IMG/VR virus record: IMGVR_UViG_3300027798_000013
Source: a virus
Taxonomy: Duplodnaviria > Heunggongvirae > Uroviricota > Caudoviricetes
Reading direction: 5' to 3' (one strand)
Length of the DNA: 64,000 nt
In this document: in pieces, positions 3,421 to 64,000 of the stretch
How the letters are laid out: every line of letters starts with the position of its first letter
How positions within the stretch are numbered: the first letter of the stretch is position 1
Made by a program: the position numbers and the translations under genes
Notes under the pieces: generated by a model
Database searches by the model: none
What the model was told of the DNA's origin: nothing
The model's input: the letters and a program-made list of their open reading frames with translations, nothing else

Positions 3421-3962
3421 CTTGTGTATCTTTCCAAATCTTGTAAGAACTTCTCAGGGTAGATTTGCCACACTGTTTGAGCATGTCCTCTATAGTCCAA
3501 TAAACACTTGAATTTAATCAGTCCTAATTTTTCTAATGTGGGAAAATAGTGCTCATGCACAAGCCGTTGACTAGCAACTTTGCTTGTATTGCTGGTGGCA
3601 TAAACATCGCCTTTTGTCCACTCTAAACAAACTGGTAATAAAAACTGGCTTGTTAAGTTTTGATGTTGGGCTATGGCAGTAGTGCGGGTCATCAATCCAC
3701 CATTACTTCTAGCACCTTCTAACACACAAGTTCGTGCCAACACCCTATAGCTGTTAACTCCCATCTCGAGAAAACTGTGTGCGGCCGCACTACCGATAGC
3801 TTTATCATCTTTGTATAATATCCATGCTGATTTTTCTTTTTCGTTATCAAAACAATCAATCATAGATTTTTGACTAGCATTGTTAACAAAGCCCTTAGCT
3901 TCCGCAGTTGTGTAAAACTCAGTTAACTCTAACTCAGGTGTCCACGGAATTACTTTATACAT
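3414..3962 (-). CDS. hypothetical protein
   Basis: ORF track; overlaps its neighbours by a few nucleotides. Confidence 0.45.
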   Translation of the reverse strand: MYKVIPWTPELELTEFYTTAEAKGFVNNASQKSMIDCFDNEKEKSAWILYKDDKAIGSAAAHSFLEMGVNSYRVLARTCVLEGARSNGGLMTRTTAIAQHQNLTSQFLLPVCLEWTKGDVYATSNTSKVASQRLVHEHYFPTLEKLGLIKFKCLLDYRGHAQTVWQIYPEKFLQDLERYTRW

Positions 3963-4651: not shown

Positions 4652-4656
4652 AAATA

Positions 4657-5706: not shown

Positions 5707-5707
5707 A

Positions 5708-18129: not shown

Positions 18130-18967
18130 TTTCTAAATACCTCAATAAAGGGCTTACACCAACTGGACAATTATCTCGCATAGCAATATGTATAGCCGGA
18201 GTAGGAGTCAAGTTGAAATCCTGGCATATCTTAAAATAGTTATCCCCGTGTGTGTTCCACAAGTAATCTGATTTGAAATTTGATAAGAAATGATTTGCTA
18301 TCATGACCGGTGCTCGAAGTAACATGTGAAAATCATTCATTATGCTAATGCTGTCTGGCTGTGTGTGTTTTGTCCATCGTAGCCCTACACGATTCCATCC
18401 TAGGCCCAGTCCTTTACTCAAGCTAATACCTACACTGCGGATTGATGGATGAGATAAATCAAAGTTGATTCCGCGACAGCAAGTAAGCCAAGCGCCATCC
18501 ACATGTACACCGATTCCCTTGTCTTGCGCTTCATCTAATACTTCCTCCATATTGATATGTACTGCGCCAGTGCTAGGAAACGGCATGGCAATTACTAGTG
18601 GTATATTTTCTCGTAACAGTCCTGGTCTAGTTCCCTGGTTACCTAGCCTATCGTGATATCTGTAATCATCAACAAGCACTTGTGGCTGGCATTGCATATA
18701 GATATTGTCAATGTATTGCGTACATCCTTGCATAATATCTATTCTGTCAAAAGTATCCAGTCCGGCTATATTATTAAGTGTACTGTTCTCTAACCAGTTA
18801 GACATGATTTCTTTAAAATCAACATAGACATTGTCCGATATATCTTTGTCCAGGGTTCCATCCAGCACTTCTTGTATAGTTTCTTCTATCAAGTTGTCAC
18901 TAAGAGGTTGCGGGCGTTCAGTTTCTAACCAGCGATCGGAATAGTTGGTTGCTATTTTAATTCTCAT
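18119..18967 (-). CDS. putative PLP-dependent (fold-type I aminotransferase-like) enzyme
   Basis: GVHVDGAW...SLSKGLG resembles the Asp/Lys PLP-binding region. Weak call. Confidence 0.4.
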   Translation of the reverse strand: MRIKIATNYSDRWLETERPQPLSDNLIEETIQEVLDGTLDKDISDNVYVDFKEIMSNWLENSTLNNIAGLDTFDRIDIMQGCTQYIDNIYMQCQPQVLVDDYRYHDRLGNQGTRPGLLRENIPLVIAMPFPSTGAVHINMEEVLDEAQDKGIGVHVDGAWLTCCRGINFDLSHPSIRSVGISLSKGLGLGWNRVGLRWTKHTQPDSISIMNDFHMLLRAPVMIANHFLSNFKSDYLWNTHGDNYFKICQDFNLTPTPAIHIAMRDNCPVGVSPLLRYLENAG

Positions 18968-20033
18968 GTACTACCTGATCTCTTGATTTTCCAAAATCAT
19001 TTATTGGTGCGCGACCACACATCCTGGCACAGGTTATTAAACTGCGTTTGTCCCAGTACTCGTACCACAAGTGTTGATAGCTATCGGACTCTATGATATC
19101 TTTTACGCCAAGTGCTACAGCGTTCAAATTGCCAATGCCGCCAAACGCTTCAACTATATCATGATATTGTGATAACATTTCATATCGCACTTCAGCGGCA
19201 TCATTTTTATCTATAAAGGTATACGGCGCACTTGCTATCCAACAACATGGAAATACATTCTTAAATGCATCTATATATACTGCTCGCTGATTTAGTGCTT
19301 GACAATCAATAACCGATTCGGATACTATTTGCTTGTAAGCATTAATAGCATTCTTGTCGATAAACTTTAAGGGAGTATCGGATGCTGGCTCGATTATATG
19401 TGTGACATTTCCATTCTTATCTAATACATCTACTTTAGGCTCGAGTAGGAAACGAGAACTGTTTTTCATAACAAAACTGGCAAAACCTAGATCCTTGCTC
19501 ATCTGCCTAGCTTTTTCTACTTGATCTTGGTTGTGTTTGAATCTGATAAAACACCATTCAGCAGTTCCGCCGGCGGCAATAAATGCCTTGGCATTTTCTA
19601 TTATATTTTCAAAACTTGTTCCAATACGGTAGACGTTGTGTGTATCACTAAGTCCATCTAACGCAAATACTACTGTGTGGATTTTTGGTAATGCTTTGGC
19701 CAAGTCACTCCACCAGCTGGTAGTTCTAGCACTGCCGTTAGTGTGTATACGCACATTGAGATTGGGATTGGTTTCTGTAGAATATCTACACATGTCGATC
19801 AGTTGTTTGTTCAATATAGGATCTCCAAAATTCCCACAAAAGAAAAAACCGTTTATTTGATTAAGTACTTCGGGAGTCATAATAGTTTTGAAATCTTCCA
19901 AAGACCAATCATTTAATTTTATTAAAGGATTCTCCAAGCCGCCACTACGATTGCGCGAACACATGGGACAACTGGCTTGGCAGTTGTTGGTAATCTCTAA
20001 ATGTACATCTAATAACTCGTTAAAGTGAAACAT
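18957..20033 (-). CDS. radical SAM enzyme
   Basis: CQASCPMCSR at the N-terminus, IHTNGS, FALDGLSDTHNVYR. C-terminal Cys-rich segment. Confidence 0.75.
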   Translation of the reverse strand: MFHFNELLDVHLEITNNCQASCPMCSRNRSGGLENPLIKLNDWSLEDFKTIMTPEVLNQINGFFFCGNFGDPILNKQLIDMCRYSTETNPNLNVRIHTNGSARTTSWWSDLAKALPKIHTVVFALDGLSDTHNVYRIGTSFENIIENAKAFIAAGGTAEWCFIRFKHNQDQVEKARQMSKDLGFASFVMKNSSRFLLEPKVDVLDKNGNVTHIIEPASDTPLKFIDKNAINAYKQIVSESVIDCQALNQRAVYIDAFKNVFPCCWIASAPYTFIDKNDAAEVRYEMLSQYHDIVEAFGGIGNLNAVALGVKDIIESDSYQHLWYEYWDKRSLITCARMCGRAPINDFGKSRDQVVHEN

Positions 20034-31606: not shown

Positions 31607-32407
31607 ATGAAACGTATTTTGACTCTTTCTGTTCTTGCCGCGGCTGTGCTGGCAACAGGTTGTACTCGTATCGAAACTGGTGAAGTTGGTGTGCGAGTTG
31701 GTTTTGATAAACAGGTGCAAAGTGGTGAACTACTTCCCGGTTCTTTTAATCAAAGTATTATTGGTGAAGTACTCACATTCCCTATCAAGGATGTGAACGT
31801 GGTACTGGAGAATATGACCCCAGTGGCCAAAGACAACTCAACCATGAAAGACTTTGATGCTGTGGTTGTCTACAACATCAACCCTGGCCAGGTATCTGAA
31901 CTGTATGCAACCAAGAACAGGAGCTTCCATGCTGAGTTCAAAGGTGATACCTATGTGATGTACAACTACATTGTGCAGAATGCTCGTAACGCTATCTACA
32001 AGGCCGCTCGCAAGTACGAGGCCCTGGACATGGCAGATGCTCGTAGCGACATGGAAACCTTTATCAAGGAAGAAATTGTTCGCAATCTTGCCGAGGAAAA
32101 GTTGGACGGTAGTATCACTATTAGTCAAGTGCTAATCCGTAATATTGTACCAGCTGACTCAGTGGTAGCAAGTGCTAACGAATTGGTCAAGGCCAAGAAC
32201 GAGTTCAAGACTGAAGAAGTCAAAGTGGCCACTGCTCGCAAGCGTAATGAATCGATGCAAGCCAACCCAATGGCAATTCCTTTGTTGCGAGCTGAAGCTG
32301 AAGCTGAAGCTATGCGCAAGTTGCCAGATGCTATTGCCAACTTCAAAGGTCAGACCTTGGTCATTAACGGAGTAGTAACACCTACTGTACAAACTAACGG
32401 AAAATAA
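31607..32407 (+). CDS. SPFH/band-7 domain lipoprotein (prohibitin/HflK-like)
   Basis: Lipobox LATGC followed by IETGEVGVRVGF..., the SPFH N-terminal signature. Confidence 0.65.
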   Translation: MKRILTLSVLAAAVLATGCTRIETGEVGVRVGFDKQVQSGELLPGSFNQSIIGEVLTFPIKDVNVVLENMTPVAKDNSTMKDFDAVVVYNINPGQVSELYATKNRSFHAEFKGDTYVMYNYIVQNARNAIYKAARKYEALDMADARSDMETFIKEEIVRNLAEEKLDGSITISQVLIRNIVPADSVVASANELVKAKNEFKTEEVKVATARKRNESMQANPMAIPLLRAEAEAEAMRKLPDAIANFKGQTLVINGVVTPTVQTNGK

Positions 32408-36595: not shown

Positions 36596-37324
36596 ATGTC
36601 CCGTTCAGCGTTCAATTGGTCCGAGTTGGATCGAAATACCCTGTATTCCATGCTTTATCAGCTGAAATCAGAAATAGTTGATAAACGGCTAACCATAGGT
36701 GAAATTACCAGCACAATAAGTAAGCATATCAAAGCCCAACTTCCTGTCAAAATAACCAGCAGTAGACACAAGCCCGTTAAGCCAGGCGAAGTTTGGATAG
36801 GTGGTGCTTATTACGCCGATCTCGACAGCGCAGGAAATAAACGATTTATTGAAGTAGAACTGGTATTTCCAACCACTGCTGACACTATGAAAACCAGCGC
36901 ATATCGGTGGGAGCGTATGTGTTGCTTATTTGCCGATACAGTACTACACGAAATCATACACACACGCCAATATCGTGCTAGACGCTTCAAAGATATTCCA
37001 GGTTACGAAAGTACCGCCTATTATGCCAAGGATCGAAGAGAACAAGAGTACTATGGGCATCGTGATGAAATGGGCGCACACAGTTTCAATCTAGCACAAG
37101 ACATGATTGATAAGTTTGGTTTTGATACTCGAGCTATCAAAGAATACTTGGACAGTCCAGTACCAAAACGTGTTCGTTCAAATGGCTGGGGACGTTTTAT
37201 GAAAGCATTTGAGTACAATCATAGTCATCCAAAAGTCATACAGATGAAGCATAAAATTATGACTCAATTGGAAAATGCCTACGCAGGCAAGCCATTTAAG
37301 ACCACAAACCACTTGACATACTGA
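36596..37324 (+). CDS. HExxH-motif protein (SprT-like or zinc-metallopeptidase-like)
   Basis: DTVLHEIIHTRQY. Confidence 0.35.
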   Translation: MSRSAFNWSELDRNTLYSMLYQLKSEIVDKRLTIGEITSTISKHIKAQLPVKITSSRHKPVKPGEVWIGGAYYADLDSAGNKRFIEVELVFPTTADTMKTSAYRWERMCCLFADTVLHEIIHTRQYRARRFKDIPGYESTAYYAKDRREQEYYGHRDEMGAHSFNLAQDMIDKFGFDTRAIKEYLDSPVPKRVRSNGWGRFMKAFEYNHSHPKVIQMKHKIMTQLENAYAGKPFKTTNHLTY

Positions 37325-39071: not shown

Positions 39072-39908
39072 ATGAGATCGCATTATTGGACTATTGGAAA
39101 ATTTTCAGACTGGCTTCGCGGCACACCCAAGCTCAAGTGTGGCACTAGCGAAGAATGGGATGCCTGGTATAAGACTGCTGAAAAAGCACATCCTATCCGT
39201 TACTGGATTGCCGAAGAAGGTCTAGACCACCTTCAAAAATTTGTTTACTACATACCGGACAAGCTAAATGACATACGCTATTATATTAACAATCGCTGGG
39301 TTACTCACAGCCATGCTCTTACCGCCCATCCTCGAGACATACAGCCGGGCAACTGGAGTGATGTGGGCAATCGCTTTCTTCCTTGTCTTTTCAATGAGCT
39401 TGTTAATTTTGTTGAAATAGAACAAGCGTGGCATCACTGCTTGTGGAGTGATGAAGCCAAGACCCAATTCAATGTGCCTTGGTACCGCACTGGTTGGCTA
39501 CGACTACGTACATGGCGCAGTCCAGAAGCCGGCATGGAATATTTGAAATGGGCCAGTGAACTCACTGTTGGCGAGGACATGGGTGCTGAACCTGGTAGCG
39601 AAGGATTTGGGGAACCGACCTGGCAAGCCAAAAGTGCTAAGGAAATTATTGAGCTTTACACTTGGTGGACTGTGACCTATCGCGCTCGTCCAGACCCGCA
39701 TAACGCCAGTGGCTGGAGTGCGTACTGTGAAGCAAGCCGTATTGCCAACGGCGGCAAACTAAGTTGGAGTAGTGACAAGAGCCCTGAACTCAAAGCCATG
39801 AGCGATGCCGCACACAAAAAGCTACAAGAAATCGAAGTGGCTTACGAAGCAGAAGATGAAGCCATGATGATTCGTCTTATCAAAATACGTCAAAGTCTTT
39901 GGACCTAA
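39072..39908 (+). CDS. hypothetical protein
   Basis: ORF track. Confidence 0.5.
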   Translation: MRSHYWTIGKFSDWLRGTPKLKCGTSEEWDAWYKTAEKAHPIRYWIAEEGLDHLQKFVYYIPDKLNDIRYYINNRWVTHSHALTAHPRDIQPGNWSDVGNRFLPCLFNELVNFVEIEQAWHHCLWSDEAKTQFNVPWYRTGWLRLRTWRSPEAGMEYLKWASELTVGEDMGAEPGSEGFGEPTWQAKSAKEIIELYTWWTVTYRARPDPHNASGWSAYCEASRIANGGKLSWSSDKSPELKAMSDAAHKKLQEIEVAYEAEDEAMMIRLIKIRQSLWT

Positions 39909-41308
39909 TGAAGGGCGATGAAGTAACTAACGTAAACGGCCGCTTTGAATCACATTACTTAAATGATTCGGAGTCGGTCTTTTCTGCCCTTAACAAAGTC
40001 AGCCCTAGTTTCTGTCTTGCCAAGTGGTACAATGTCAGCATACACATACCCACAGGTCGCACACACAGTTGTTATCATCCGCCCACACATCAAATTCCTC
40101 TGAAGGAAATTGCTATTGATGTATCAGCACTACACAATACCAAATATAAAAAGAATCAGCGTAAACTCATGCTGAAAGGTGAGCGGCCGATCGAGTGCGG
40201 ATTTTGCTGGCAAATTGAAGACAGCGGCACACAACTAAGTGACAGAGCTTATCGTAGCAAGGATGTGTATGAGCCTGGCTTGATAGAAGAAGCGCAGTTG
40301 GTAGAGAATCCTAATCCACGTTATGTGGAAGTAAACTTTAATCAAGCCTGTAACTTGAAATGTAGTTATTGCTCTCCGCACCTAAGCACAGAGTGGAACA
40401 AGGAAATAGACCGACACGGGCCTTACTTGTTAGCAGACAATAAAACACACAACGACACACAATGGATGCGGAATCAAAACATGGTTCCCAACAACAGTTT
40501 AGACAATCCATACTTGTTAGCTTTTTGGGAATGGTTACCACAGATATATCCCACACTACACACCTTCCGCATGACTGGCGGCGAACCTTTGATGGACAAG
40601 AATACATTCCGTATGTTTGATTACGTTAAAGAACACCCAAGCGAGCGGTTACATCTAAGCATCACATCAAACTGTTGTCCACCTAAAGGACAATGGACTA
40701 AGTTCATGACCAGCTTGAAAGAGATTACAGATACGGATGCTGTTAATCACTTTATGTTGTTCTGTAGTTTAGACTCGTGGGGTGCTCAAGCAGAGTATAT
40801 TCGTAATGGTTTAGACTTCTGTACCCTATATACTAACATAACTGACTACTTGAAGAACAGTAGCAAACACAGTCTTACCTTTATTATCACATTCAATGCC
40901 CTGAGCTATACTGGCTTTGTTAAGTACATTGAGAACATACATAAATTAAGACAAGAATACAACACAGATAGACAGCTGATCTGGTTTGACATTCCTATGC
41001 TGAATGACCCTATGTGGATGAATCCCAAACTGCTACCTAACATGGTGTCTGAATTAGAACGTGCTATAGATTTTATGAAGGCAAATGAAGAAGGCGAACA
41101 CAATCGCTTTAAGGGTTTTAAAGATTTTGAAATCAGCAAAGTACAACGCCTGATTGACTGGGTAAAGAGTGACAGCAAGTTTGACAGAGCCACAGCAATG
41201 AAGAACTTTTATCTATTCTTTAGCCAGCATGATGAACGCAGGGGAACAAGTTTTTTAAATACATTCCCCGAACTAACAGACTTTTGGAACACTTGTGAAA
41301 AGACCTAA
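39899..41308 (+). CDS. radical SAM enzyme, tandem paralog 1 of 4
   Basis: CNLKCSYCSP core. N-terminus SPSFCLAKWYN...SCYHPPTH...ECGFCWQIED. Confidence 0.8.
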   Translation: MDLMKGDEVTNVNGRFESHYLNDSESVFSALNKVSPSFCLAKWYNVSIHIPTGRTHSCYHPPTHQIPLKEIAIDVSALHNTKYKKNQRKLMLKGERPIECGFCWQIEDSGTQLSDRAYRSKDVYEPGLIEEAQLVENPNPRYVEVNFNQACNLKCSYCSPHLSTEWNKEIDRHGPYLLADNKTHNDTQWMRNQNMVPNNSLDNPYLLAFWEWLPQIYPTLHTFRMTGGEPLMDKNTFRMFDYVKEHPSERLHLSITSNCCPPKGQWTKFMTSLKEITDTDAVNHFMLFCSLDSWGAQAEYIRNGLDFCTLYTNITDYLKNSSKHSLTFIITFNALSYTGFVKYIENIHKLRQEYNTDRQLIWFDIPMLNDPMWMNPKLLPNMVSELERAIDFMKANEEGEHNRFKGFKDFEISKVQRLIDWVKSDSKFDRATAMKNFYLFFSQHDERRGTSFLNTFPELTDFWNTCEKT

Positions 41309-42644
41309 CGAAACCGATTTAGAATATAAAAAACGTGTACTGGATGCTATTAGCCCCAGCTTCTGCGGAGCCAAGTGGTACAATGCCACTATCTGGCTTG
41401 GATCAGGGCAAACAACAAGTTGTCATCATCCGCCTGCACATAAAGCAGACATACAAATAGTTAAATTTAATCCCAAGGCAATTCATAACACTCCCCAGAA
41501 GAAAGAAGATCGCCGTAAGATGTTGGCTGGAGAACGTCCTTCAGGGTGTGAGTACTGCTGGAAGATTGAAGATATGGGTGTGGACGCTGTAAGTGACAGA
41601 CCTTACAAGAGTATGACATACACCGAAGAAGCATTGCTGGAAGCAACAAGAACTCCAGTGGACCAGGATGTGGATTTGCAAACACTTGAAATAGCATTTG
41701 ACCGTACTTGTCAGTTTGCTTGTAGTTATTGTAACCCAGCGTTCAGTACAACATGGGTTAAAGATATTAAGAAGAACGGTCCTTATGTTAATCTAGTCAC
41801 AGATGGTCGTGGACATTTTACTCATGTACACGAAAACGATCAGTTGTTTGACTTTCATGAAGAGAATCCGTATATTGAAGCATTTTTTAAATGGTGGGAA
41901 AGTGACCTACACCGCACACTGAAAGAGTTACGCATCACAGGTGGCGAGCCCTTGATGAGTGGGCACACTTGGAAGTTGTTTGATTGGTTTAAAGCAAACA
42001 AAAATAAGAGTACATGTCAGCTAGCCATTAATAGTAATTTGGGATTCGGGCAAGATGTAGTACAACGTATGCTAGACAGTACTGACGGTGTTAAGATGAT
42101 GCTGTATACCAGCAATGAAAGTGTAGGGCCACATGCTGAATACATTCGTGACGGATTGGAATGGAGTCAATGGATCAGTAATATGGAATTCTTGCTTAAA
42201 GCAGAACGTATGCGTCTAAGTGTTATGATGACTATTAACGCATTATGCTTGGAAAGTTTGCCTGAGATGTTGGATCAAGTAATGGCTTGGAAGAAGACGT
42301 ATGGACAATGGCACATTAACTTTAGTCTTAACATACTGCGTTTTCCAAGTTTCCAAAGTGCATTAACTTTGCCGGATCACGTTAGACAAGAATATAATAA
42401 ACGTCTTGCTGAGTGGTATGAACTTAATCGTGGCAATCCGGATTTGAATAACTTTGAAAAGAGTAATATTGAACGTTTGATAGATTACTTAGACATTGTT
42501 AAAACTCCACACGGTGAGGGTTATGTACAAGCCACAGCACAAAAAGATTTCAAACAATTTTACGAACAATATGATGTTCGTAGAGGAAAAGATTTCCGTA
42601 AAACATTTAGCCCCATGCTTGTAGAATGGTATGAATCTATTTAA
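41295..42644 (+). CDS. radical SAM enzyme, tandem paralog 2 of 4
   Basis: CQFACSYCNP. N-terminus SPSFCGAKWYN...SCHHPPAH...CEYCWKIED. Confidence 0.8.
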   Translation: MKRPNETDLEYKKRVLDAISPSFCGAKWYNATIWLGSGQTTSCHHPPAHKADIQIVKFNPKAIHNTPQKKEDRRKMLAGERPSGCEYCWKIEDMGVDAVSDRPYKSMTYTEEALLEATRTPVDQDVDLQTLEIAFDRTCQFACSYCNPAFSTTWVKDIKKNGPYVNLVTDGRGHFTHVHENDQLFDFHEENPYIEAFFKWWESDLHRTLKELRITGGEPLMSGHTWKLFDWFKANKNKSTCQLAINSNLGFGQDVVQRMLDSTDGVKMMLYTSNESVGPHAEYIRDGLEWSQWISNMEFLLKAERMRLSVMMTINALCLESLPEMLDQVMAWKKTYGQWHINFSLNILRFPSFQSALTLPDHVRQEYNKRLAEWYELNRGNPDLNNFEKSNIERLIDYLDIVKTPHGEGYVQATAQKDFKQFYEQYDVRRGKDFRKTFSPMLVEWYESI

Positions 42645-43950
42645 TTGGTTTAAACCCAAGGATCCTGCAAAGAAATATTTTTACTTTAAAGAAGAAAAAA
42701 TGGATCCTGTTAGCCCTACATTTTGTGGGGCTAAATGGTTTGAAAGTACTATATGGCTGTATCAGGGAACTACTGCCAGTTGTCATCATAACCCGTTCCA
42801 TAAGATACAGTTGGATCAAAACGATCCTGGCTCTTTACATAACACTCCTGTCAAATTAAAAGAACGTATAGACATGTTGGCAGGCGGCAAGCCAACCAAT
42901 TGTAGTTATTGCTGGAATGCGGAAGCTAATGGAACACTGAGTGATCGTGTGATAAAAACTAACAGCGTACCTACAAAAATATTTAAACGTTGGTTTCAAA
43001 GTAAACCGCTGGTTGTTACTCCTACACTTTTAGAAATTGCTTTTGAACGTACTTGTAATTTGGCCTGTGCATATTGTGGGCCAAGTTTTAGTAGCAAATG
43101 GGCAAGTGATATAAAGAAGCGCGGTCCGTATGTAAACTTGATAACAGACAGTCGTTACAACACCGACTCTGGTAATGATGTTATAGATAACGATCATAAT
43201 CCATACACTGAATCATTTTTTAAATGGTGGCCTCTCATAGAACGTGATTTGAACTGTTTACGCATCACAGGTGGTGAGCCGTTAATGAGTCCAAATTTTT
43301 GGCGCTGTTTGGATATGTTTAAAAAATTCAAAGGCACATTAATAGTCAACACTAATTTGATTTGCTACAAGGATGAACTTCAGTCTCTACTGAACAAAAC
43401 CCGTAAGGTAGAATTACGCATACACACCAGTATGGAAAGCAATCTAGACCAAGCTGAATATGTTAGGGATGGTTTTGATAAAACAGTATGGTTAGCCAAC
43501 GTACATTTTATATTACATCATAGACGTGTTATGCTAAATGTCACCACTGCCATTAATAATATGGCTGTTTGGAGTTTTATCGATTATCTGAAACTCATGC
43601 GTGAGTTAAAGACTAAGTACGGAAAGAAGCGTGTGGAGATCAATTGTAACTTTGTACATTACCCTGCGTTTATGCGTGTACAAATGATTCCCGCCGCACA
43701 GCGTAGGATACTAGCCGATGAAGTCAATAATTGGTTCGTGTTGAATAAAAAACTGCTTAACGATAAAGAACAACAGCACATATTGCGATTCATAAGTACT
43801 ATGGATGCAGGCTGGATTGATCAAGATTACGAAATTAAAGATGCGTACAATGATTTGAAGAACTTCATTGTGCAATATGACACCCGTAGAGGAAAGAATT
43901 TTAGACATGCCTTGGATAAAAGATTTGTTGAGTGGTACGATGGACTCTAA
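42631..43950 (+). CDS. radical SAM enzyme, tandem paralog 3 of 4
   Basis: CNLACAYCGP. N-terminus SPTFCGAKWFE...SCHHNPFH...CSYCWNAEA. The start may instead be the ATG at 42700. Confidence 0.8.
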   Translation: MNLFNWFKPKDPAKKYFYFKEEKMDPVSPTFCGAKWFESTIWLYQGTTASCHHNPFHKIQLDQNDPGSLHNTPVKLKERIDMLAGGKPTNCSYCWNAEANGTLSDRVIKTNSVPTKIFKRWFQSKPLVVTPTLLEIAFERTCNLACAYCGPSFSSKWASDIKKRGPYVNLITDSRYNTDSGNDVIDNDHNPYTESFFKWWPLIERDLNCLRITGGEPLMSPNFWRCLDMFKKFKGTLIVNTNLICYKDELQSLLNKTRKVELRIHTSMESNLDQAEYVRDGFDKTVWLANVHFILHHRRVMLNVTTAINNMAVWSFIDYLKLMRELKTKYGKKRVEINCNFVHYPAFMRVQMIPAAQRRILADEVNNWFVLNKKLLNDKEQQHILRFISTMDAGWIDQDYEIKDAYNDLKNFIVQYDTRRGKNFRHALDKRFVEWYDGL

Positions 43951-45136
43951 CTGGTACTGTAAATTACCCTGGACTGGATTCAGTAATGACCCAGACGGCA
44001 AAGCACGGCCCTGTTGCCTGTACAAGGATCACATCAAAGACGATGCTGGTCAGATAATGTATGTGCAAACCAGCTCAGTCAAGGAGATATTCTCCAGCAA
44101 ATACATGAAGGATTTACGACAGCAGTTTCGTGACGGTGCCAAACCCAGTGCTTGCGAAACTTGTATTGTTGACGAACAGAACAACTACACAAGCAAGCGT
44201 CAACGTCACATTGAAGGTGATTTTTATTTTTTACCGGACTATACTAAAGAGCCAGAATTCCCAGTAGAGTATCAAATGATACTGAGCAATGCCTGTAACT
44301 TGAAATGTCGTAGCTGTACGCCGAGTCATAGCAGTTTGTGGCAAGCTGAACACAAAGTTATCTGGGGTAATACTGGTTACAAAATGCCCGAAGGACAGAG
44401 TGGCGAAAACGACAGCGTGTTATGGAACAAGCGTAGTGAGTGGATGCCCAGTGTTGCTAGATTAGAAATTGTAGGCGGTGAGCCTTTTTACATTAATCGT
44501 TGGAAGATACTGTGGCAGGAGTTTATTGAACAAGACTTGGCTAAGAATATCAACATGGATATTAGTACTAACTGCACTATCTATGCTGGAGATACAGTTG
44601 CAGATCTAGTAGAGAATTTTAGACACATTGGGCTCGGGCTTAGTGTTGACGGCATGGGCAAAGTATACAATTACTTAAGACATCCTGGCGAATGGGAAGA
44701 AGTCAAGGCCAATATGTTTGCCTATAACGACATGATTAAAACTATCAATCGCAGAAAAATAGGACCAAGCGTTAGCCATACTATTGGTTGGATCAATGCT
44801 TGGGAGTTACCAGAATTTCATACGTTTGTCAAAGATGAACTAGATGAATTTAAAATATGGAATAACATTATTCACTATCCGCCGCATATGGCAGTGTATA
44901 TGATTCCTGCCACACTTAAAGATCGTATTAAGGCCAAGTGGGCTACCTACGATTGGGGCAGATATAAAAACGACATCGCAGGCATTGTTAGTTTGATGTA
45001 TAGTCAACAGCCCAGTGATGATGAAATCAAACAAGCCTACAAAACATTCAAACAACACGATACTGTGCGTAATGAAAACTTGTTGGATATTTTGCCGGAA
45101 GAGATTGTGGAAGAGATCAGACCTTACTATGAATAG
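43940..45136 (+). CDS. radical SAM enzyme, tandem paralog 4 of 4 (large type)
   Basis: CNLKCRSCTP. N-terminus YCKLPW...PCCLY...ACETCIVDE. The track start lies 72 nt upstream inside the previous gene. Confidence 0.8.
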   Translation: MDSNWYCKLPWTGFSNDPDGKARPCCLYKDHIKDDAGQIMYVQTSSVKEIFSSKYMKDLRQQFRDGAKPSACETCIVDEQNNYTSKRQRHIEGDFYFLPDYTKEPEFPVEYQMILSNACNLKCRSCTPSHSSLWQAEHKVIWGNTGYKMPEGQSGENDSVLWNKRSEWMPSVARLEIVGGEPFYINRWKILWQEFIEQDLAKNINMDISTNCTIYAGDTVADLVENFRHIGLGLSVDGMGKVYNYLRHPGEWEEVKANMFAYNDMIKTINRRKIGPSVSHTIGWINAWELPEFHTFVKDELDEFKIWNNIIHYPPHMAVYMIPATLKDRIKAKWATYDWGRYKNDIAGIVSLMYSQQPSDDEIKQAYKTFKQHDTVRNENLLDILPEEIVEEIRPYYE

Positions 45137-47696: not shown

Positions 47697-49193
47697 ATGA
47701 GCCAACTATTCACTATACTAGACGATAAAATTGTAATTAACAAGGCCCTGCTACGTTATGTAGAAGGTCCTACTTCCCTTACTGGGTCACTTGAAATCTT
47801 GGGCGGCGCTAGTGTACAAGATAATTTGATTGTGAAAGGCAGAATTGTTGCCGATGTTATCGAAGCTAACCAAATTATTAATAAGGGACTTGGCGGCGGC
47901 AGTGGAGACACTACTAATTTTAGAGCTGAATCCGAAGAGTCATTAAACGGACAAGGTGTTACTTGGAACGTTGGCGATACAGAAAGCACACTCGTATACC
48001 GTCCAGGCAACAGACTATACACCAACTTACATTTGGATTTGGAGCGTGGCCGTGCTTACAAGATAGATAATATCGAAGTACTGACTGGTAATACGTTAGG
48101 TAGTAGCGTTAGCCGTTCAAGTTTGCGTCAATTAGGTCCATTAAACAACTTAATTGTTAATGGTAATGTTGAGATTGGACAGTTTGTTTATGTAGATAGC
48201 GATACTGGACGAGTTGGTTTTGGTACTGAAAGTCCTAACGGTTCATTTAGTATTGTTGACAACGGTGCAGAATTTGTTATTGGCAGTCCAAGTACAGGCA
48301 CAGTAAACATCGGTACTTACAGCAATCACGATGTTGCTATTACTACAGACAATATTGCCCGTGTTACAGTTAAAACAGGCGGTGATGTACATGTTGGAAA
48401 TGTCACAAGTCGTGGCGCTAAGTTCTTTGTACATGGTACAATACATGCAGAAAACATTGTTACTGAAACTAAAATTGAACGTACTGACAGCGTTAAATTT
48501 CTAGCAACCGACGGCACAGTTTTCGGTATTGGTTTGCAGTGGGTGGGTTCTGGAAGTCCTAAGCAACTTATCCTACGCCCTGATCCAGATAGACTATGGT
48601 CAAGTGAACATATTGAACTTGCGGCGCATCGCAGTTTAATGATTAATAATAATAGAGTATTGGACGAAACCACACTAGGTGTATCTGTTACAGATTCTAG
48701 TTTGACTAGCGTGGGTAATCTCACGTCATTAACTGTAAATGGGGCGTCGGTTCTTAGCGATACTACTGCACAAAAGATACAAGCAACAGAAATTAATTTT
48801 GGTGAAGGTAGTCAACTGGTTAAAGTTAATGATAGAGGCGTTACTAGTAGCCTAAGTTTCAATCTAACAGTGGGTGAACAAAACATCATCTATGCTGACA
48901 GCGGAAGTATTACAATTGGTTCTTCAGAAAATACCCGTAGACAAATTCGAGCGTTTGGTACACTAAGCGTTAACGTAAATAATCCAGATCCAGAGCTACA
49001 GTTTGCAGTGGCTGGTAATATTGGGTTCGCTGGCCGAAAATTCATTACTGGTGCGAGTGCGCCTGAACAAGGTAATTACAATGTTGGCGACATTTGTTGG
49101 AGCGATGTTCCACAGATTGGCGGTAATGTTGGTTGGATCTGTTGCGTTGCAGGTGCTCCGGGCATGTGGTTTAAATTTGGTATGATTGGTTAA
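47697..49193 (+). CDS. putative virion structural protein (beta-helix or fibre-like repeats)
   Basis: Gly/Thr/Val/Asn-rich with repeated xGxVxIGT-like strands. Flanked by a terminator and a late-type promoter motif. Confidence 0.45.
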   Translation: MSQLFTILDDKIVINKALLRYVEGPTSLTGSLEILGGASVQDNLIVKGRIVADVIEANQIINKGLGGGSGDTTNFRAESEESLNGQGVTWNVGDTESTLVYRPGNRLYTNLHLDLERGRAYKIDNIEVLTGNTLGSSVSRSSLRQLGPLNNLIVNGNVEIGQFVYVDSDTGRVGFGTESPNGSFSIVDNGAEFVIGSPSTGTVNIGTYSNHDVAITTDNIARVTVKTGGDVHVGNVTSRGAKFFVHGTIHAENIVTETKIERTDSVKFLATDGTVFGIGLQWVGSGSPKQLILRPDPDRLWSSEHIELAAHRSLMINNNRVLDETTLGVSVTDSSLTSVGNLTSLTVNGASVLSDTTAQKIQATEINFGEGSQLVKVNDRGVTSSLSFNLTVGEQNIIYADSGSITIGSSENTRRQIRAFGTLSVNVNNPDPELQFAVAGNIGFAGRKFITGASAPEQGNYNVGDICWSDVPQIGGNVGWICCVAGAPGMWFKFGMIG

Positions 49194-51558: not shown

Positions 51559-51846
51559 CTATAATTGGCCTATAGTTTTTAAGCTACTAGCCGGTATATC
51601 CCAAATCTTACGTGCTTCTACACCTTTGAGTTGTGCAAACTTTTTTGGGTCACAGTCAGCACACACATGGTAAAAATTATTGTTTATGCGTTTGGGATCC
51701 ATACTTCCTTTATCTCGATAAATTACTTCGCTACATGCATCACATTGTAGCACAACCACAGTTTTTTTACGCTTGTAGGTATGAGTAATGCCCCTATTGC
51801 TGGTGCGTACATGATGTGATTCTCTAAACTCAGTGCGTATGAACAT
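51559..51846 (-). CDS. zinc-ribbon (CxxC...CxxC) basic protein
   Basis: CDAC...CADC. Confidence 0.45.
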
Positions 51847-51904
51847 ATACTATTTACATTCGGATTATAAAATTGGTTTGATAAATATCATATCGAGGGC
51901 AATC

Positions 51905-52228
51905 ATGATCACTATATCCGAGTCAGCAAAAACAAAAATCAAGGACCTACTCCTTGAAGAAAACAATCCCCAATTATCATTACGCACTTTTGTACAAGGT
52001 GGAGGCTGTAGTGGCTTTAGCTACGGTTTTACTTTTGACGATGTAATGAATGAGGATGATTTTGAAGTTCCTCTAGATGAATTTAAGTTACTTGTAGATG
52101 CAATGAGTATGCAATATCTGCAGGGTGCAGAAATAGACTATAAAGAAGAGCTTGCAGGCAGTTCTTTCACAATCACAAATCCCAACGCAAAATCAACATG
52201 CGGTTGCGGTTCTAGCTTCGGAGTTTAA
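51905..52228 (+). CDS. IscA/HesB/ErpA-type Fe-S cluster A-type carrier
   Basis: [16 protein letters not shown], then C-terminal CGCGSSF, the canonical three-Cys signature. The start is moved to the ATG at 51905. Confidence 0.75.
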
Positions 52229-52233
52229 TAAAA

Positions 52234-55200
52234 ATGGCAAAACAAGAAATTGATATTGGTATACAAGGTAATGACGGCACAGGCGACAGTATTCGTGACT
52301 CGTTCCGCAAGGTAAATGATAACTTTACAGAAGTATATGCAATTTTTGGCCTGGGCGGCACGATTAAATTCACTGCTCTAGGGGATACTCCGGATAGCTA
52401 TACTGCTGATCAGGTGTTTATTACTAACGGTGCAGGCACATCAATACTTGCTAAAACACTAACTGCCACTGGAGGTGTTAGTATTGATAACAGCCGTGCT
52501 GGCGAATTACGTTTGGTTGGTACCACATCCGATTTGAGAAACGACATTGCTCCTCGTTTAGGTGGACCATTAAACATTAATAATTTAGCAGTTGGTAACA
52601 TTCCTGATCCAAGCTCAGCATTGGTCAATGCGTTCAATGCCACGTATGCAAGTCTTGGTATTTCAACAACTATTGATAAATTGGCAATTAGCAAGGGTTA
52701 TGCTGACACTCACTATGTTGGCAAAGGCGACGGCAACGTGGTTGTAGGAGCATTGCGTTTACGTGATGAACCGCTGACTCCAGATTTAACTGACATAACT
52801 TATGATTCAACGTTAACTAGCAACTATCTATCAAACGAAGCATTGCCACGTAAAAATACAGTGTATCGTGGCGGTGACACAATGATTGGCAAGTTGACTC
52901 TCAGCGATCATCCTGCTCCAGTAGCTGGCTTTGGCACTCCAAACAGTGCAGATGACAAGCAGGCCGCTACAAAATTTTATGTTGATAATGAAGTATTTGT
53001 CAGCTCAACCAACTTGTATGTACGCACAGACGGCGATGACACACAATTAAAAACTCCTCCCGGACGCGAAGGCCGGAACTGGGCACATGCTTATAAAACT
53101 ATTGGTGCGGCCGCACTTCAAGCTGAAACACTACAAAGTCTGGCCAGCTTGGAACCTGGGCCATATCGTCAAAAGATCAGCTTTACAATTAGTCCCAATC
53201 AGTTTAACTCAACAATACAATCTGTCACACGCAGTGGCGGAAATACAGGTGTTGCTGGTTATGAAGATGCCGCGGCATTGCTCACTGCAAACAAAGCATT
53301 CATTCAAGCAGAAACTATTGCATACATCAATAACAAATATGTAAACACATTCACTTACGACCAAGTTAGATATCAAAGTGACATAGCATCAATTTTAACA
53401 GCAGTTGGCACTGACCTTGTGATTGGTTCTAATTACAATAGTCTGCAATTTGCCACTTCTTACTTTGCAAAGCAAAATTCCGCAATTATTAGTAATCAAT
53501 TGATTCAGACTGTTGATGCTATTAACTATGCCAGAGATGAAGTGTTGGCTTTTGCCTATAACTCTGCTTCGCTTACTACCTATCTTAATTCTGTGATCGA
53601 TGCTGTTAATTATGACATGGTGTTGAATTCCAACTATCAGAGTATCGTTTCTGCTAGATATTATCCAGATGCGGCTACCGGATTAACAGTTGAAGAAATA
53701 GTTGGAGCACTCGGCCAGTTAAAACTAGAATTAAATAATTTAGCACAAATTGGTGGTAACCCAGTAACGGTTGCTCGGGATAGAATTACCAGTTGCATCA
53801 ATGCCATGATTGTGGTGGTTCAGGGCGGTATTGAACCAGCATTGATCATGACTGCAACCAGCAGTTCAAGCATAGCAAAACAAAGCGCAAGAACTTTGTT
53901 ATTGAACAACATAGCATTTGCACAGGCTGAAATTATTGCTTGGATAGCGGCCAATTATCCAAAATTAGCATATAGTCAAACTACTTGTAAACGAGATGTT
54001 GCTTACATTATGGAAGCCATTGCATATGATCAGTTGTATGGTGGTAACAGCAGAACTGTTTATGCAGGACAAAGATATTGGGAAAATGCCGTTAGACAGA
54101 TTGCTAGTAGCGAACTTGCGGCGACCAAGGGTGCCATTGCATATATCAATACGCTGGCGCAAGCAATTATTAATAATGTTGGACCAGCACAAGTTTATCA
54201 AAACAGTGTTAATCAGTATCAGAATCAAACATACACTGGCGGCGCGGCACAAGGCCCAACTATTTCAAATTTAGTTGCACTTATTTCAGGCACTACATTT
54301 ACAATTACTGCTACTAATAGCATTAGTGGAATTACAACTGCTAGCACAACAAATATGACTGCTGGTATGTTGTTAACTTTTGACCTAGCATCTGCTATAA
54401 CTGTTACTGGTTTCCAAAGTAAGTCAGGCTCAGGCCCATACTTGGTAACGTTTGCAGTACCAGCATGGACTGTGCAACCTTTAGCTAACACATCATTTAC
54501 CATGGCCGGCAATGCCAACACCAGTTACAACGGTAATTTTGCTGTTAACAGTTCTACACCTACAACAGTTACCCTTAGCTATCCTAATGATCCTGGTGTT
54601 TATGGAGGTGGTGCAACAACTATTACTTCTTACTTTGGCGGCATTACTGGCGGCACAGCTTACTATGTAATTGAAATTACAGATGCCACACGTTTCAAAA
54701 TTTCATCATCGTCGGGCGGCTCGGCAATTACATTAACAAATACACAAGTTACAACAACAGCAACATGGGCAGGGTTGATATCAGCTAACAATGCGCCTGC
54801 TGTTACGCCGCCAAATTATGCCGCAGGTGCCGCAACACTGGTAACAGTTTATGGAAATATTAATTCTGCAAAAACTTCAGCAATTACCAATACCATAACG
54901 TTTGTTAACAACACATATCCATATATTAATAATGCAACTGCTATCACGCAGATTACCGCGTTGTTCAATACAATTACTAATACACTGTTGTTCAGCTTGG
55001 CAAATAGAACAAGTGTATCATTAGTTGCGCCTTCTTCATTAGGGTCTCCATTTAATAGTGCATCTCAATTATTATTGGCCAACGTTGGATTTATATCAGC
55101 AGAAGTTACTGGTTGGATCAAACAAAATTACGCATCACTAAATTATGTTGATGCTGACGGCCAAATACAATGGCAGAAAGATGTGCAATTGCTTGTGGAA

Positions 55201-58200
55201 GCAGTGGCCTATGATTTGACTTACGGCGGGCTAAGTGGCTCAACTACTGCGGCCAATCAATTTTGGACCAGTGCAGTAGTAAATGCGCTAACAGTATATA
55301 CCAGTGCTATTGATCCAACTGAAAAAGCAGCCAAGGTAGCCAGTCTTAGTTATCTGCAAACAATATCTGCTTCTATCATCGGTAACAATCCACCAAGTGC
55401 GCTGTATCAAAGTATTTTACCCAAGACAGCGACATTTATATCCAAGGCCGGATCGGGCCCTTATCTAGTTAGACTATCTACACCTACTCGAATTATACCA
55501 ATCCCAGTTGGTGAAAAAATTACAGTGGCCGGCAACTCAAATACTGGTTACAACGGGACATTCGTAGTAACTGCCAGTACATCAACCAGTACAACAATTT
55601 CTTACCCAAGTGATCCTGGTACATGGAGTATTGCAACCACCACTACATTTGAATTGGCTCAAACAACCAGCGGAACTTATACAGATGGAGCTGGTGCTGT
55701 TACCGCTATGAATACCAAGTGGGATAGAATTATTAATGTAATAGATCTTAATCCTCCCAACTTGGTTACAGCAACACCAGATTTAACCAATAGTTCATAT
55801 GCTAGTACAGGTTATGTTGCAGTGCGTTCTACAATTTTAGCCAATGCATTAACAGTTGCACAGTCAACCACAACTTACTTAAATGAAAAATACAAAGGCG
55901 GCTTCAACTATAACGAAGCCCTTTGTCGCAGAGACGTGGGATATATTGTTGATGCCATGAGCATTGATCTGTTAAGTGGTGGCACATATCAAAGTATCAA
56001 TGCTGGTAAGAGTTATTACAAAAGTGCCAGTGCTAGGCTAGCTATTACAACACAGTTGACAGAAACTCTCGATGGTATTCAATATGCTAGAACTTTAGGA
56101 TTGCAAGTTTTAAATCAAACAGTTGCAAGTCGTTATCAAGTGTTGGTAACGCAGGCCGTGGACGGTAGTAAAGATGCAAATCGAGGATACACTGCATCTG
56201 CTACATATTCAACATCATCCAGCACTACATTGAATGTTACCAGCATAAGTGGAACTGTCAAAGTTGGTATGACCGTATCGGGCACTGGATATACTGCTGG
56301 ACAAGTTGTTACTGCGGTGAATGGAAATCAACTTACATTAAGTGCGGCCGCTAATGGTACACCAAGCGGCGCATTAACTTTTACCATTACAGCTATTACC
56401 ACATTTACCAACAACTATGCTATTATGTTAAGCATTGTAGTTAATGGTGTAGGTGTTGCACCTACACCAGACTTTGGAACAGGTATCTATACCATTACAT
56501 TTACCAACGGCGGCAACGGCTATGTTGACCAATGCCCTCCTGGTGATTTTAATATTTTGCCAGGAAAAATTTTACGAGGTGGTTCTTCTGGTGCCACAGC
56601 AAATATATTAAGCTATAGTCCTGGATCATTAACTGGTGCATCAAATGACACAATCACTTGCCAGTTACTACAACCTGGATTCTTTGACCAAGCAAATAAT
56701 GAAGAATTAGAATTTGCTGAAAGTGTCGGTGCATTGCAAATTGTTATATTTGTTGAAGCTGGTATTTACAACGAAGATTACCCAATACGATTAACCGCCA
56801 ACGTTTCAATCAAAGGTGATGAATTCCGTAGAACAATTATTCGACCATTGGATCGAGTTAGTCAAAGTCCATGGCGTAAACTATTCTTCTACCGCGATTC
56901 AGTCATTGACGGTATGCAGATTGGTCCTATTGATAACAGTGTTGACTATGTTCCATCTACAAACCTCATTAGTTTTGTAAGCAAGACCAGTGTTGGTAGT
57001 GGTGCATACGATGTTGTGTTTAATATACCTACGCAAACATTTACCCCCAGCACCTTATTAACATATACGGTTGCTGGCAATACAAACTTGTCTTATAATG
57101 GAACATTCACTTGTGTTGCAAGTTCTACTACACAAATTACATTGCGTTATGCAAGTGATCCAGGAACATATGGCACAAGTACTGTTTCAACTATCGGACC
57201 ATTAGTTACAGCGACTATCAGCGGAACTGTTGGCAAAATTATTATTACATTGAGTAGTAACACACAGGTCAGTGTCAGTTATCTAGGCTATGTATTCCAA
57301 TCGGATGTATTAGACAGCAACGGCAAGCCTGGTCGTGCAGTAGTTGACAGTGTATCTGGTAACTTCATGAATGCCACAGTGATGTATCCGTTTACACAAA
57401 CAGCGGTAGCAACAATTAACTATACAAATGCTTTTACATTTGCAGTAGGCGAAACAATTGCACAAAGCGGAACAACATCCAGTGCTACTGGCGTTGTTAT
57501 TTCAGCAACAGCAACACAGTTAACTTATAAAGTTACTTCGGGCATCATGTCAAACACCAACGGTGCTATTATTGGAGCGACCAGCGGGGCGCAGGCCAGT
57601 GTGAGTTCTATATCGTTTGGTGTTCTTGCACCTACTTCATGGCATCTCTATGAAACTAAAAACTACGGACGTCATTATTTGACTGACCCGGCGGATATAA
57701 ACAGTACTCCAAAGAACAATAGAGACATTGACGTATTTTTATGCGGTAATGCTGTACGTATGAACAACATGACCGGTGAAGGTCATGGCGGATTTATGAT
57801 GGTGCTGGATCCAGAAGGCCAAATCAAATCTAAATCACCGTATGGACAGGTTGCTACCAGTTTTAGCCGAAGCCAAAACAAACAAGTTTTTGCCGGTGGA
57901 CAATTTGTAGATGGATTTGCCGGACGTTTGTTTGGACAAATAACATTCGCAAGTGTTGACGGATTTACATTAATTGTAACAGGCGGTGTTAATAGTGGAT
58001 TAGACATACGTGCTCCCCAAACTCCTAGTGCATTCTTTGTGCGTGGCGGCCGTTATCAGATTAATACTGTAAGCAATTATGCACAAACATTTGATGTGAA
58101 TGGAAATGTTATTGGCGGAACTGTTCAATTAAATCTTGGTGCTCAAACACCATGGCTTGGGGGCGCTGGACAAAAAATTAATATTGAAATGGCTGGTAAT

Positions 58201-64000: not shown

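Follow-up and report, generated by a model that had tools for sequence, protein, structure and literature searches.

A 4,607-residue putative baseplate-anchored fibre protein from an uncultured phage lineage and its phycobiliprotein-like modules

Positions 52234 to 64000 of a 64,000-nt virus sequence (IMG/VR record IMGVR_UViG_3300027798_000013, Caudoviricetes; the whole stretch is called the window below) are occupied by the 5' part of a giant open reading frame (ORF), which is a real, conserved coding gene. Its complete product of 4,607 aa is probably a baseplate-anchored trimeric fibre or other structural protein of the virion; a role as the primary receptor-binding protein is held somewhat less firmly. 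The architecture of one chain, running from a gp9/10_N adaptor to a gp8.5/gp12-like C-terminal domain over 4.6 kaa (thousand amino acids) in a widespread uncultured lineage, is new. As a giant fibre gene, it represents a new family within a known kind, and the finding is modest on size alone. The more interesting part is a phycobiliprotein-like module, which among cultured phages is confined to cyanophage structural proteins.

Frame 1 was found to run from the ATG at 52234 to base 64000 (+) through 3,922 sense codons without a stop, as a sequence-only reading of the window had stated, while the remaining five frames contain 160-385 stops each over the same span. According to the base composition, the probability of such a stop-free frame is about 3e-107. 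The relative synonymous codon usage of frame 1 correlated with that of 26 neighbouring genes at r=0.895 (every other frame, <=0.48), and the codon-usage mismatch named earlier as a ground for doubt was thus not observed. The minus-strand ORFs of at least 100 aa within the span are four in number and, as previously described, short and rich in Pro and Val (100-113 aa; Val 20-28%, Pro 9-18%). By direct reading of the sequence, a Shine-Dalgarno-like GGAG is located at 52220..52223 (+), 10 nt 5' of the ATG. The preceding IscA-like ORF stops at 52228 and the giant gene begins 5 nt later, so the two are probably co-transcribed.

Contigs continuing the ORF were sought in IMG/VR with an exact 70-nt pattern from the window end, and two were found (L001 and L002). 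Contig L001 overlapped the final 579 nt of the window without a mismatch and extended the frame by 685 codons to a stop (L001 8034->5977, minus strand there); L002 agreed with this extension. This exact overlap completes the part encoded within the window (aa 1-3,922) to a protein of 4,607 aa with a mass of 473.5 kDa and an isoelectric point of 5.2. Six further assemblies from JGI and ENA were located by look-up of the neighbouring UvdE protein. A 4,607-aa product is called at the locus in five of them (JGI 3300061646 and 3300027679; ENA ERZ27247899, ERZ922606, and ERZ27247898), and in the sixth (ENA ERZ27315795) the contig stops within the giant gene. The assemblies differed from the window DNA by 1-8 substitutions per 8,771 nt and by zero indels, which speaks against a frameshift or an assembly artefact; no in-frame stop of the kind that resequencing might have revealed appeared in the five complete calls. 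The ORF had been described as unannotated. It is indeed absent from the ORF track supplied with the window, because the lister omits ORFs running off either end of the source, but this is an artefact of the lister, and public gene calls of 4,607 aa exist. The alternative of a non-coding or chimeric frame, or of one created in assembly (for example, when sequencing errors join several genes), was weighed only on account of the length and the low-complexity Thr/Ser/Gly composition, and nothing was found in its favour. The frame-1-specific codon usage, the same call in at least five assemblies from different samples, and collinear orthologues with 44-77% identity that keep the frame open over 2-4 kaa make this explanation extremely improbable.

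The N-terminus of the protein comprises a T4 gp9/gp10-type baseplate-adaptor segment (aa 3-58; 52240..52407, +), which contains IQGNDGTGDSIRDSFRKVNDNF. The motif that had earlier suggested a fibre-type N-terminus is present at aa 10-31, and this assignment was supported by profile comparisons. PF07880 (T4_gp9_10_N) matched aa 3-58 with 29.4 bits against a gathering threshold (GA) of 25, covering profile positions 1-60 of 175 only. A Pfam search with the whole 3,922 aa gave nothing, and the match surfaced only when the protein was cut into tiles. The same end matched phrog_677, 'baseplate wedge tail fiber connector' (E 4e-12), as well as phrog_958 and phrog_6942. Profile A1, built from 29 orthologues, retrieved from the PDB sequences residues 2-45 of T4 gp10 (E 7e-6) and residues 7-54 of T4 gp9 (E 3e-3). 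No homology to gp10 or gp9 was detected beyond this segment, the profile alignments stopping at gp10 residue 45 and gp9 residue 54. In more distant relatives, Mtd_N takes the place of the gp9/10_N segment. In T4, gp10 and gp9 are baseplate wedge proteins attaching the short and long tail fibres, and the gp9/gp10-type N-terminal segment anchors the trimers of both to the wedge. The likeness to them thus lies in the N-terminal ~45-58 residues and in the clustering of several gp9/10_N-type genes at this locus. Neither gp10 (602 aa) nor gp9 (288 aa) bears a fibre of its own, whereas here the adaptor and the putative giant fibre form one polypeptide. An invariant segment, 'GDTMTG.L.L.DHP...ATKFYVDN', follows at aa 214-251 (52873..52986, +); its columns are invariant in alignments A1 and A3, it is modelled with low pLDDT (predicted local distance difference test) as a monomer, and it resembles the joint motifs of phage fibres.

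The C-terminal end lies just beyond the window. Hairpin-like repeats of the form 'GTLK..TLTTGA...GTI.G.W' were found at aa ~4225-4480, and the last ~130 aa are highly conserved across orthologues. This C-terminal domain recurs in 2,953 database proteins, some of them short and combining gp9/10_N with the same C-terminus. It is present in PA5oct gp359 (44% identity over 133 aa), whose record is annotated as a virion protein detected by mass spectrometry, as well as in the phages Atu_ph07 and Phosso and in those of the CP220 type. The AlphaFold2 (AF2) model used for this end was that of the fragment P0085, which is 92% identical to the C-terminus of the window phage, and the domain was modelled with pLDDT >=90. 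In Foldseek searches, the model matched the N-base of phi29 gp8.5 (6qyy, E 8e-5), and both this protein and gpD-type decoration proteins scored better than the C-terminal fragment of phi29 gp12 (3gqh_A/3suc; E 6.4e-3, prob 1.0, target-normalised template modelling (TM) score 0.53). The last ~130 residues are accordingly modelled as a double small beta-barrel, like the trimer bases of the phi29 gp8.5/gpD type and the gp12 auto-chaperone. The fibre-tip chaperone domain that had been proposed as something to look for may have a chaperone-like counterpart here. Peptidase_G2 (PF11962) remained below the cut-off in this protein (17.0 bits against GA 25), and matches to it in 11 of 24 orthologues were likewise weak and sub-cut-off (best E 3.5e-4). 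An invariant D-L-A-E-x-Y motif (...ATY-ADLAEYY...) marks the domain boundary; a catalytic role of this motif is a guess. The possible resemblance to the phi29 gp12 auto-chaperone comprises the modelled small beta-barrels, a location at the very C-terminal end of a fibre, and the weak Peptidase_G2 signal; it differs in that the Peptidase_G2 match is sub-cut-off and that the domain family is very large. The jumbo Pseudomonas phage PA5oct offers a further likeness, being a large myovirus with a ~3.9-kaa virion protein (gp355) in the baseplate region and phrog_11903 neighbours in common. PA5oct gp355 (3,857 aa) was considered as an orthologue and rejected, since it has no BLAST similarity to the giant protein.

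Between the two ends, the region of aa ~1300-3690 contains 43-60% Thr+Ser+Gly+Ala and is composed of several recurring module types of 40-150 aa with 30-60% identity, which are not recent tandem repeats. Two conserved domains stand out in its central part. The first, '...GIYNEDYPIRL..NVSIKGDEFRRTIIRP...', is located at aa 1380-1580 (56371..56973, +) and shows 60% mean column identity with 41 invariant columns in alignment A7. The second is located at aa 1796-2144 (57619..58665, +) and is 55-67% identical across orthologues (alignment A6). The first domain had no PDB or Pfam match, and the impression that a beta-helix starts there is unsupported, no PDB entry having matched its profile; the profile of the second had no PDB match either. 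In phmmer searches of the PDB sequences, the whole protein and its C-terminal 685 aa gave nothing meaningful. A 'G.(I/V)TG.GIP.GTT(I/V)' motif was observed at aa 2807-2905 (60652-60948) and again in a 432-aa protein encoded downstream (L001 1032-2330); the similarity of this stretch to the phage decoration protein 8eci was not significant (E 0.11).

The most variable stretch (aa ~2900-3690; 60931..63303, +) was delimited from the coverage profile, composition, and repeats. It comprises 50-60% Thr/Ser/Gly/Ala, contains recurring ~80-aa modules, and aligns in only 3-11 of 32 orthologues, and it is a candidate specificity region. It is followed by a single-copy conserved domain at aa 3698-3945 (63325..64000, +, leaving the window after aa 3922), which holds FYVTTDQNGIFRVGRFF. 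This domain matched phrog_9851 (E 1.1e-32) over the last 150 of 1,092 profile positions, is 58-64% identical in orthologues, and in tblastn was 33-47% identical to annotated fibres of P-SSM2, S-CAM1, S-CAM3, and the pelagimyophage Mosig. The tail end of the ORF had been described as carrying beta-strand repeats; however, the FYVTTDQNGIFRVGRFF string occurs a single time, close to aa 3,770, and the FYVTTDQNG stretch is part of this one domain. The fibre-related families matched by the protein were phrog_4527, phrog_5342, and phrog_9851. The protein is not a beta-fibre over its whole length, since about 1,000 N-proximal residues consist of alpha-helical globin-like modules.

The orthologue set consisted of 80 viral loci recovered with the N-terminal 700 aa of the giant protein. 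At least 27 complete orthologous ORFs of 2,077-4,000 aa are present in IMG/VR, and several others remain open beyond 4,000 aa at the locus end, one of which, on a contig of 259 kb, comprises at least 4,380 aa. Most of the ~1,000-aa database 'homologues' are fragments encoded on short contigs. Identity to the closest relatives amounts to 72-77% over more than 4,000 aa. The orthologues are collinear, with conserved anchors at aa 1-685, 1140-1580, 1800-2140, 2600-2900, 3698-3945, and 4225-4607, and with weak or absent alignment at aa 2400-2600, 2900-3690, and 3950-4225. Such a widespread, uncultured, syntenic family of 2-4.6 kaa, with putative adaptor, shaft, and tip in one chain, is useful for the annotation of viral dark matter and for host-range prediction.

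The giant gene heads a block of gp9/10_N-type and Ig-domain protein genes, a neighbourhood that agrees with a baseplate or fibre module, and has collinear orthologues on at least 80 viral contigs; the ends of the protein are conserved and its distal third is hypervariable across orthologues. In a fibre, trimerisation of the chains would begin at the C-terminal beta-barrel domain, as it does in phi29 gp12 and in other fibres ending in a chaperone domain, and the N-termini would plug into the baseplate wedge in the manner of T4 gp9 and gp10. Four phycobiliprotein-like modules would then form a helical proximal section near the baseplate end, and the variable Thr/Ser/Gly/Ala-rich modules together with the conserved FYVTTDQNG domain would make up the part in contact with the host. 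After trimerisation, the C-terminal domain may be detached near the invariant ATY-ADLAEYY boundary. T4 gp34 has 1,289 aa for roughly 70 nm; by crude scaling from it, the fully extended chain would measure ~200 nm or more, which is an upper bound because the helical modules are globular.

Several points weigh against the fibre assignment. The role is predicted from sequence and modelled structure, and the AF2 monomer models were moderately confident (pLDDT 69 and 73). The similarity to gp10/gp9 ends after ~45-60 residues, so the mode of attachment is deduced from a short segment. About 60% of the protein, including both conserved central domains, matched nothing known. Self-cleavage of the C-terminal domain is speculative, because the Peptidase_G2 signal is sub-cut-off and the best fold matches are capsid decoration proteins. 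Moreover, the largely helical proximal kilobase is atypical for a beta-structured fibre, and the protein may in part be a scaffold. In an alternative reading, the giant protein would be mainly a baseplate scaffold, either a gp7/gp10-like wedge extension or a tail-associated net, rather than a receptor-binding fibre, and would leave host recognition to the smaller fibre proteins encoded nearby (498 aa upstream; 284, 432, and 837 aa downstream). The occurrence of the helical module in cyanophage gp7 baseplate wedge subunits and 'baseplate wedge initiator' proteins, the long stretches with 55-67% identity across orthologues, and the several smaller fibre-like genes flanking the giant gene would agree with such a scaffold. 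It appears rather unlikely, however, given a distal third as hypervariable as expected of a specificity determinant, FYVTTDQNG and C-terminal domains in common with annotated tail fibres, and an N-terminus of the gp9/gp10 adaptor type, which carries fibres in T4.

The proximal part of the protein contains four copies of a phycobiliprotein-like globin module, identified from internal repeats and motif scans. Copy 1 (aa 325-484; 53206..53685, +), to which an all-alpha model also applies, has a degenerate YQSD at aa 380, and copy 2 (aa 530-689; 53821..54300, +) has an intact CKRD at aa 585-588. Copy 3 (aa 925-1084; 55006..55485, +) has a degenerate WQKD at aa 980, and copy 4 (aa 1176-1335; 55759..56238, +), supported by tblastn as well, has an intact CRRD at aa 1231-1234. 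The AF2 model of aa 1-690 was all-alpha over aa 340-690, with pLDDT 85-93 over the second module. The top 50 PDB matches in Foldseek were nearly all phycoerythrins and phycocyanins (prob 1.0, target TM 0.5-0.69, E 0.03-0.5), and the modelled fold qualifies as a phycobiliprotein-type globin.

Profile searches pointed in the same direction. PF00502 was above its GA of 22.2 in four homologues (25.2-29.2 bits) and was the top family, sub-threshold, in 4 of 29 orthologue segments (best E 4e-5); the modules of the window protein itself gave no match to it at E<=1. Profile A8, restricted to the module (36 copies), was compared with 177,635 PDB sequences at E<=10, and 37 of 37 matches were phycobiliproteins (best E 0.016). 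The broader profile A5 (aa 331-700) did not retrieve phycobiliproteins. Against a large protein database, A8 matched 7 proteins, of which at least two (P0207 and P0208) are N-terminal fragments of cyanophage giants. In hhalign, 115 module copies were aligned with six manually entered phycobiliprotein sequences, with a probability of 88%, P 3e-6, and a score of 45.5 over 97 columns; the reversed alignment scored 11.2 and 25 column shuffles <=14.2, and myoglobin, haemoglobin, and T4 lysozyme gave nothing. The hhalign match is limited to phycobiliprotein positions 38-146.

All of the alignments placed the invariant Cys-x-Arg-Asp of the module on Cys84-x-Arg86-Asp87. In phycobiliproteins, Cys84 is the cysteine of thioether bilin attachment, and Arg86 and Asp87 hold the chromophore. 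Around this triad, window copy 4 (CRRDVGYIVDAMSIDLLSGGTY) and the S-PM2 copy (KCERDIGYFVDAVVNDLRLGGNI) locally resemble phycocyanin alpha. The triad is kept or lost as a whole: C..RD is present in 81 of the 115 copies, and both R and D in only 5 of the 34 copies lacking the Cys, the copies having been gathered with a pattern that permitted only R/K/S/T/Q and D/N at the triad positions. The proximal part of the giant protein (aa ~325-1335), like that of the cyanophage giants described below, thus appears to consist of phycobiliprotein-like globin modules in which a bilin-site triad is conserved, and this recognition is new. The closest systems are phycobiliproteins, the bilin-binding domain of ApcE, bilin biosynthesis-associated globins (BBAGs) (PMC10151467), and photocobilins. 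Unlike phycobiliproteins, the modules lie within virion structural proteins, in 2-6 copies that are tandem or dispersed, and some copies no longer have the triad. The literature searched contained no description of phycobiliprotein-like domains in structural proteins of phages, which is not proof of novelty.

The distribution of the module was determined by tblastn against 50,697 phage records. Window copy 4 matched 54 records, and the S-PM2 copy matched 396 records at 885 places; except for one marine single-cell-associated virus, both sets consisted of Synechococcus and Prochlorococcus phages. The module-bearing proteins include giant 'short tail fiber' proteins, gp7 baseplate wedge proteins (P-HM2 gp7, 4,454 aa), 'baseplate wedge initiator' proteins, and other structural proteins, and the cyanophage giants contain 2-6 KCxRD copies each. 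Annotated giants were found in S-WAM2 (4,759 aa), P-HM2 (gp7, above), S-CAM4 (4,057 aa), S-RIM32 (4,021 aa), Syn1 (Syn1_032, 4,017 aa), and S-PM2 (p218, 3,779 aa), in addition to PA5oct gp355. A polypeptide longer than 3.9 kaa had been called exceptional. This is overstated, since the annotated virion proteins of cyanomyoviruses and PA5oct include some of 3.8-4.8 kaa (3,779-4,759 aa) and at least 27 complete orthologues measure 2,077-4,000 aa.

The giants of cyanomyoviruses (T4-like GC 734/phrog_4527) resemble the window protein in being single chains of 3.8-4.8 kaa encoded beside baseplate and short-fibre genes and in having the KCxRD module. They are not orthologous to it from end to end, and BLAST similarity is confined to modules of ~60-200 aa. 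The phrog_4527 profile matched the window protein with E 3e-35 over profile positions 1161-1508 of 3730 only. Syn1_032 was matched by the module profile in hhalign (prob 98%, 1.6e-14) and by the window protein in BLASTP with seven short high-scoring segment pairs of <=198 aa; it was therefore rejected as an orthologue, the similarity being at the module level only. The cyanophage giants begin with MPLTRLDNLYSSK..., without the gp9/10_N segment, and have a different C-terminal end. Their upstream neighbour is cpeT, whereas that of the giant gene in the window phage is IscA-like.

The giant gene is preceded on the same strand, at a distance of 0.3-1.8 kb, by a CpeT-like bilin-lyase gene in each of the five cyanomyovirus genera checked: Syn1 (Vellamovirus, L003), S-PM2 (Nodensvirus, L093), S-RIM32 (Bristolvirus, L095), S-CAM4 (Potamoivirus, L096), and S-WAM2 (Cymopoleiavirus, L097). 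Apart from tRNA genes, the interval contains only small ORFs (hypothetical, 2OG-Fe(II) oxygenase, and HNH), the 2-oxoglutarate (2OG) oxygenase gene being present in 3 of 5 genera. In the S-PM2 record (NC_006820.1, 165928-177267, L093), 16 tRNA features, all with the locus tag S-PM2t009, are placed inside the 3,779-aa coding sequence. These coordinates look misplaced in the RefSeq record, because the coding sequence translates without stops. The S-PM2 protein was still called hypothetical in 2023 (PMC9910659).

These observations raise the possibility that the modules are working bilin sites, that is, that the virion fibre and baseplate proteins concerned (this family, the cyanomyovirus giants, and gp7) bear genuine bilin-binding domains of phycobiliprotein origin. 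The fibre would then be a chromoprotein, charged with host- or phage-made bilin during assembly, and would act as a photoreceptor or pigment in a light-responsive baseplate or fibre (e.g., light-gated adsorption) or in another use of pigment. In cyanophages, the adjacent phage CpeT-like lyase would load phage or host bilins onto the modules. Such a function adds to the fibre assignment and does not replace it. It would accord with the above-threshold PF00502 matches in homologues, the phycobiliproteins-only retrieval by A8, and the hhalign result; with the alignment of the all-or-none triad on the attachment cysteine and the two chromophore-contacting residues; and with the near-confinement of the module to cyanophages and the proximity of cpeT to the giant gene in every genus checked. 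In addition, the module is carried by S-PM2 and P-HM2, whose adsorption requires light independently of host photosynthesis and for which light-sensitive receptors or tail fibres have been proposed (PMC6628666). Bilin-binding globins also occur outside cyanobacteria (PMC10151467).

Bilin binding is nevertheless predicted from sequence and fold comparison, and the possibility is considered unlikely, for the proteins in general as for the modules described here. The window protein itself is under the Pfam cut-off, the PDB E-values are marginal even at best, and the triad has been lost in two of the four copies. Neither heme oxygenase, bilin reductase, and ferrochelatase (Mosig queries) nor CpeT (S-PM2, Syn1, and S-CAM4 queries) was found in the window or the related loci, which represent a small part of the genomes. 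The adjacency of cpeT may reflect conserved gene order in Kyanoviridae, and the conservation of Cys, Arg, and Asp could instead stem from a role in folding or in contacts between subunits. If the proposal were true, the modules would offer a candidate molecular basis for the unexplained need for light in the adsorption of S-PM2 and P-HM2 (PMC6628666) and a phage-encoded acceptor for phage bilin genes and CpeT, and the window phage would be predicted to infect a cyanobacterium. What phage bilin genes are for, other than light harvesting, has been called open (PMC11480375, section 14); with bilin-binding modules, the need for light in adsorption, the target of CpeT, and the role of the phage bilin-synthesis genes would become testable. 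Modules without bilin would still represent a host antenna-protein fold recruited into the virion.

The gene order around the giant gene is kept on dozens of contigs. Its 5' part consists of a phrog_11903 protein, a 498-aa fibre-like protein, QueD, UvdE, and three small ORFs, and its 3' part of the IscA-like gene, the giant gene, an 82-aa gp9/10_N protein, and a 284-aa gp9/10_N-like protein. The IscA-like iron-sulphur (Fe-S) carrier gene (51833..52228, +; phrog_17776, PF01521) lies immediately upstream of the giant gene, as had been noted, and is syntenic with it in 66 of 80 related loci. This neighbour may more simply be an Fe-S carrier for the approximately ten radical S-adenosylmethionine (radical-SAM) enzymes of the window; no evidence was found linking the upstream enzymes to modification of the fibre or its receptor. 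The 498-aa fibre-like protein (47697-49193, +; phrog_6002, phrog_23059) has TATAAATA ahead of its gene, which occurs in synteny with the giant gene in 40 loci, and probably represents another fibre of this baseplate. The gene diverging from the IscA-like gene (51559-51846, -) encodes a Cys-rich, zinc-ribbon-like protein of 95 aa (CDAC...CADC), with a match in 77 of 80 related loci and 46-97% identity in those inspected.

On contig L001, where the genes lie on the minus strand, the giant gene is directly followed by that of the 82-aa protein (5729-5977), which contains little beyond a gp9/10_N segment (PF07880, 31.4 bits). The 284-aa gp9/10_N-like protein (4908-5762), an 837-aa He_PIG Ig-domain protein (2369-4882), and the 432-aa Thr/Gly-rich protein (1032-2330) follow, and from their sequences the four look like a set of alternative baseplate-attached appendages. 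A 169-aa ORF on the same contig (288-797, -) encodes a partial DNA polymerase III alpha NTPase domain (PF07733; phrog_11127) and is, by its sequence, a putative split or fragmentary DnaE-type polymerase; classical T4-like phages are without a polymerase of this type.

The source of the window is most likely an uncultured, large, T4-superfamily-like myovirus. Megablast of the ORF and of 25 kb upstream found no match among the 50,697 phage records, which indicates a phage without a close cultured relative. Among cultured phages, the best relatives of a conserved 409-aa protein belong to jumbo phages of the PA5oct type and to T4-superfamily phages of the phiM12, Cr30, and DLP6 type. The literature on 'Far-T4' phages held nothing informative on the lineage. 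The phage occurs in 37 blocks of the sequence collection, in one case on a 0.2-1 Mb contig, and its genome probably exceeds 200 kb. A near-identical phage (1-8 differences per 8.8 kb) was observed in six or more assemblies that come from separate projects and include one labelled a crustacean metagenome, and the population looks widespread and genetically very uniform.

The string TATAAATA, the T4 late-promoter consensus, occurs 4 times in the window (36569 (+), 47671 (+), 51555 (-), and also 11951) against ~8 expected at 30% A and 30% T, and is thus not enriched. Three of the four sites lie 26-27 nt before the ATG of an ORF (36596-37324, 47697-49193, and 51529-51269), a placement that hints at T4-type late transcription; none stands directly before the giant gene. 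No tRNA genes were found in the window.

The window also encodes an ATP-dependent DNA ligase, besides the QueD, UvdE endonuclease, and IscA-like proteins mentioned above, as well as a TauD-family dioxygenase, a fatty-acid desaturase, an APS-kinase-like P-loop protein, and an SPFH/Band-7 protein (5678-8360, 20033-20824, and 31607-32407). The desaturase had no tblastn match in the 50,697 records of cultured phages and therefore gives no support for a cyanophage origin. The radical-SAM ORFs, about ten in number and of a density unusual for a phage, form two islands (11946-21783 and 39899-45136). The first island contains six ORFs, one with an N-terminal SPASM domain, and the second consists of four tandem paralogues of 420-470 aa with a common N-terminal 'SPSFCxAKW(Y/F)...C(H/Y)HPP.H'.

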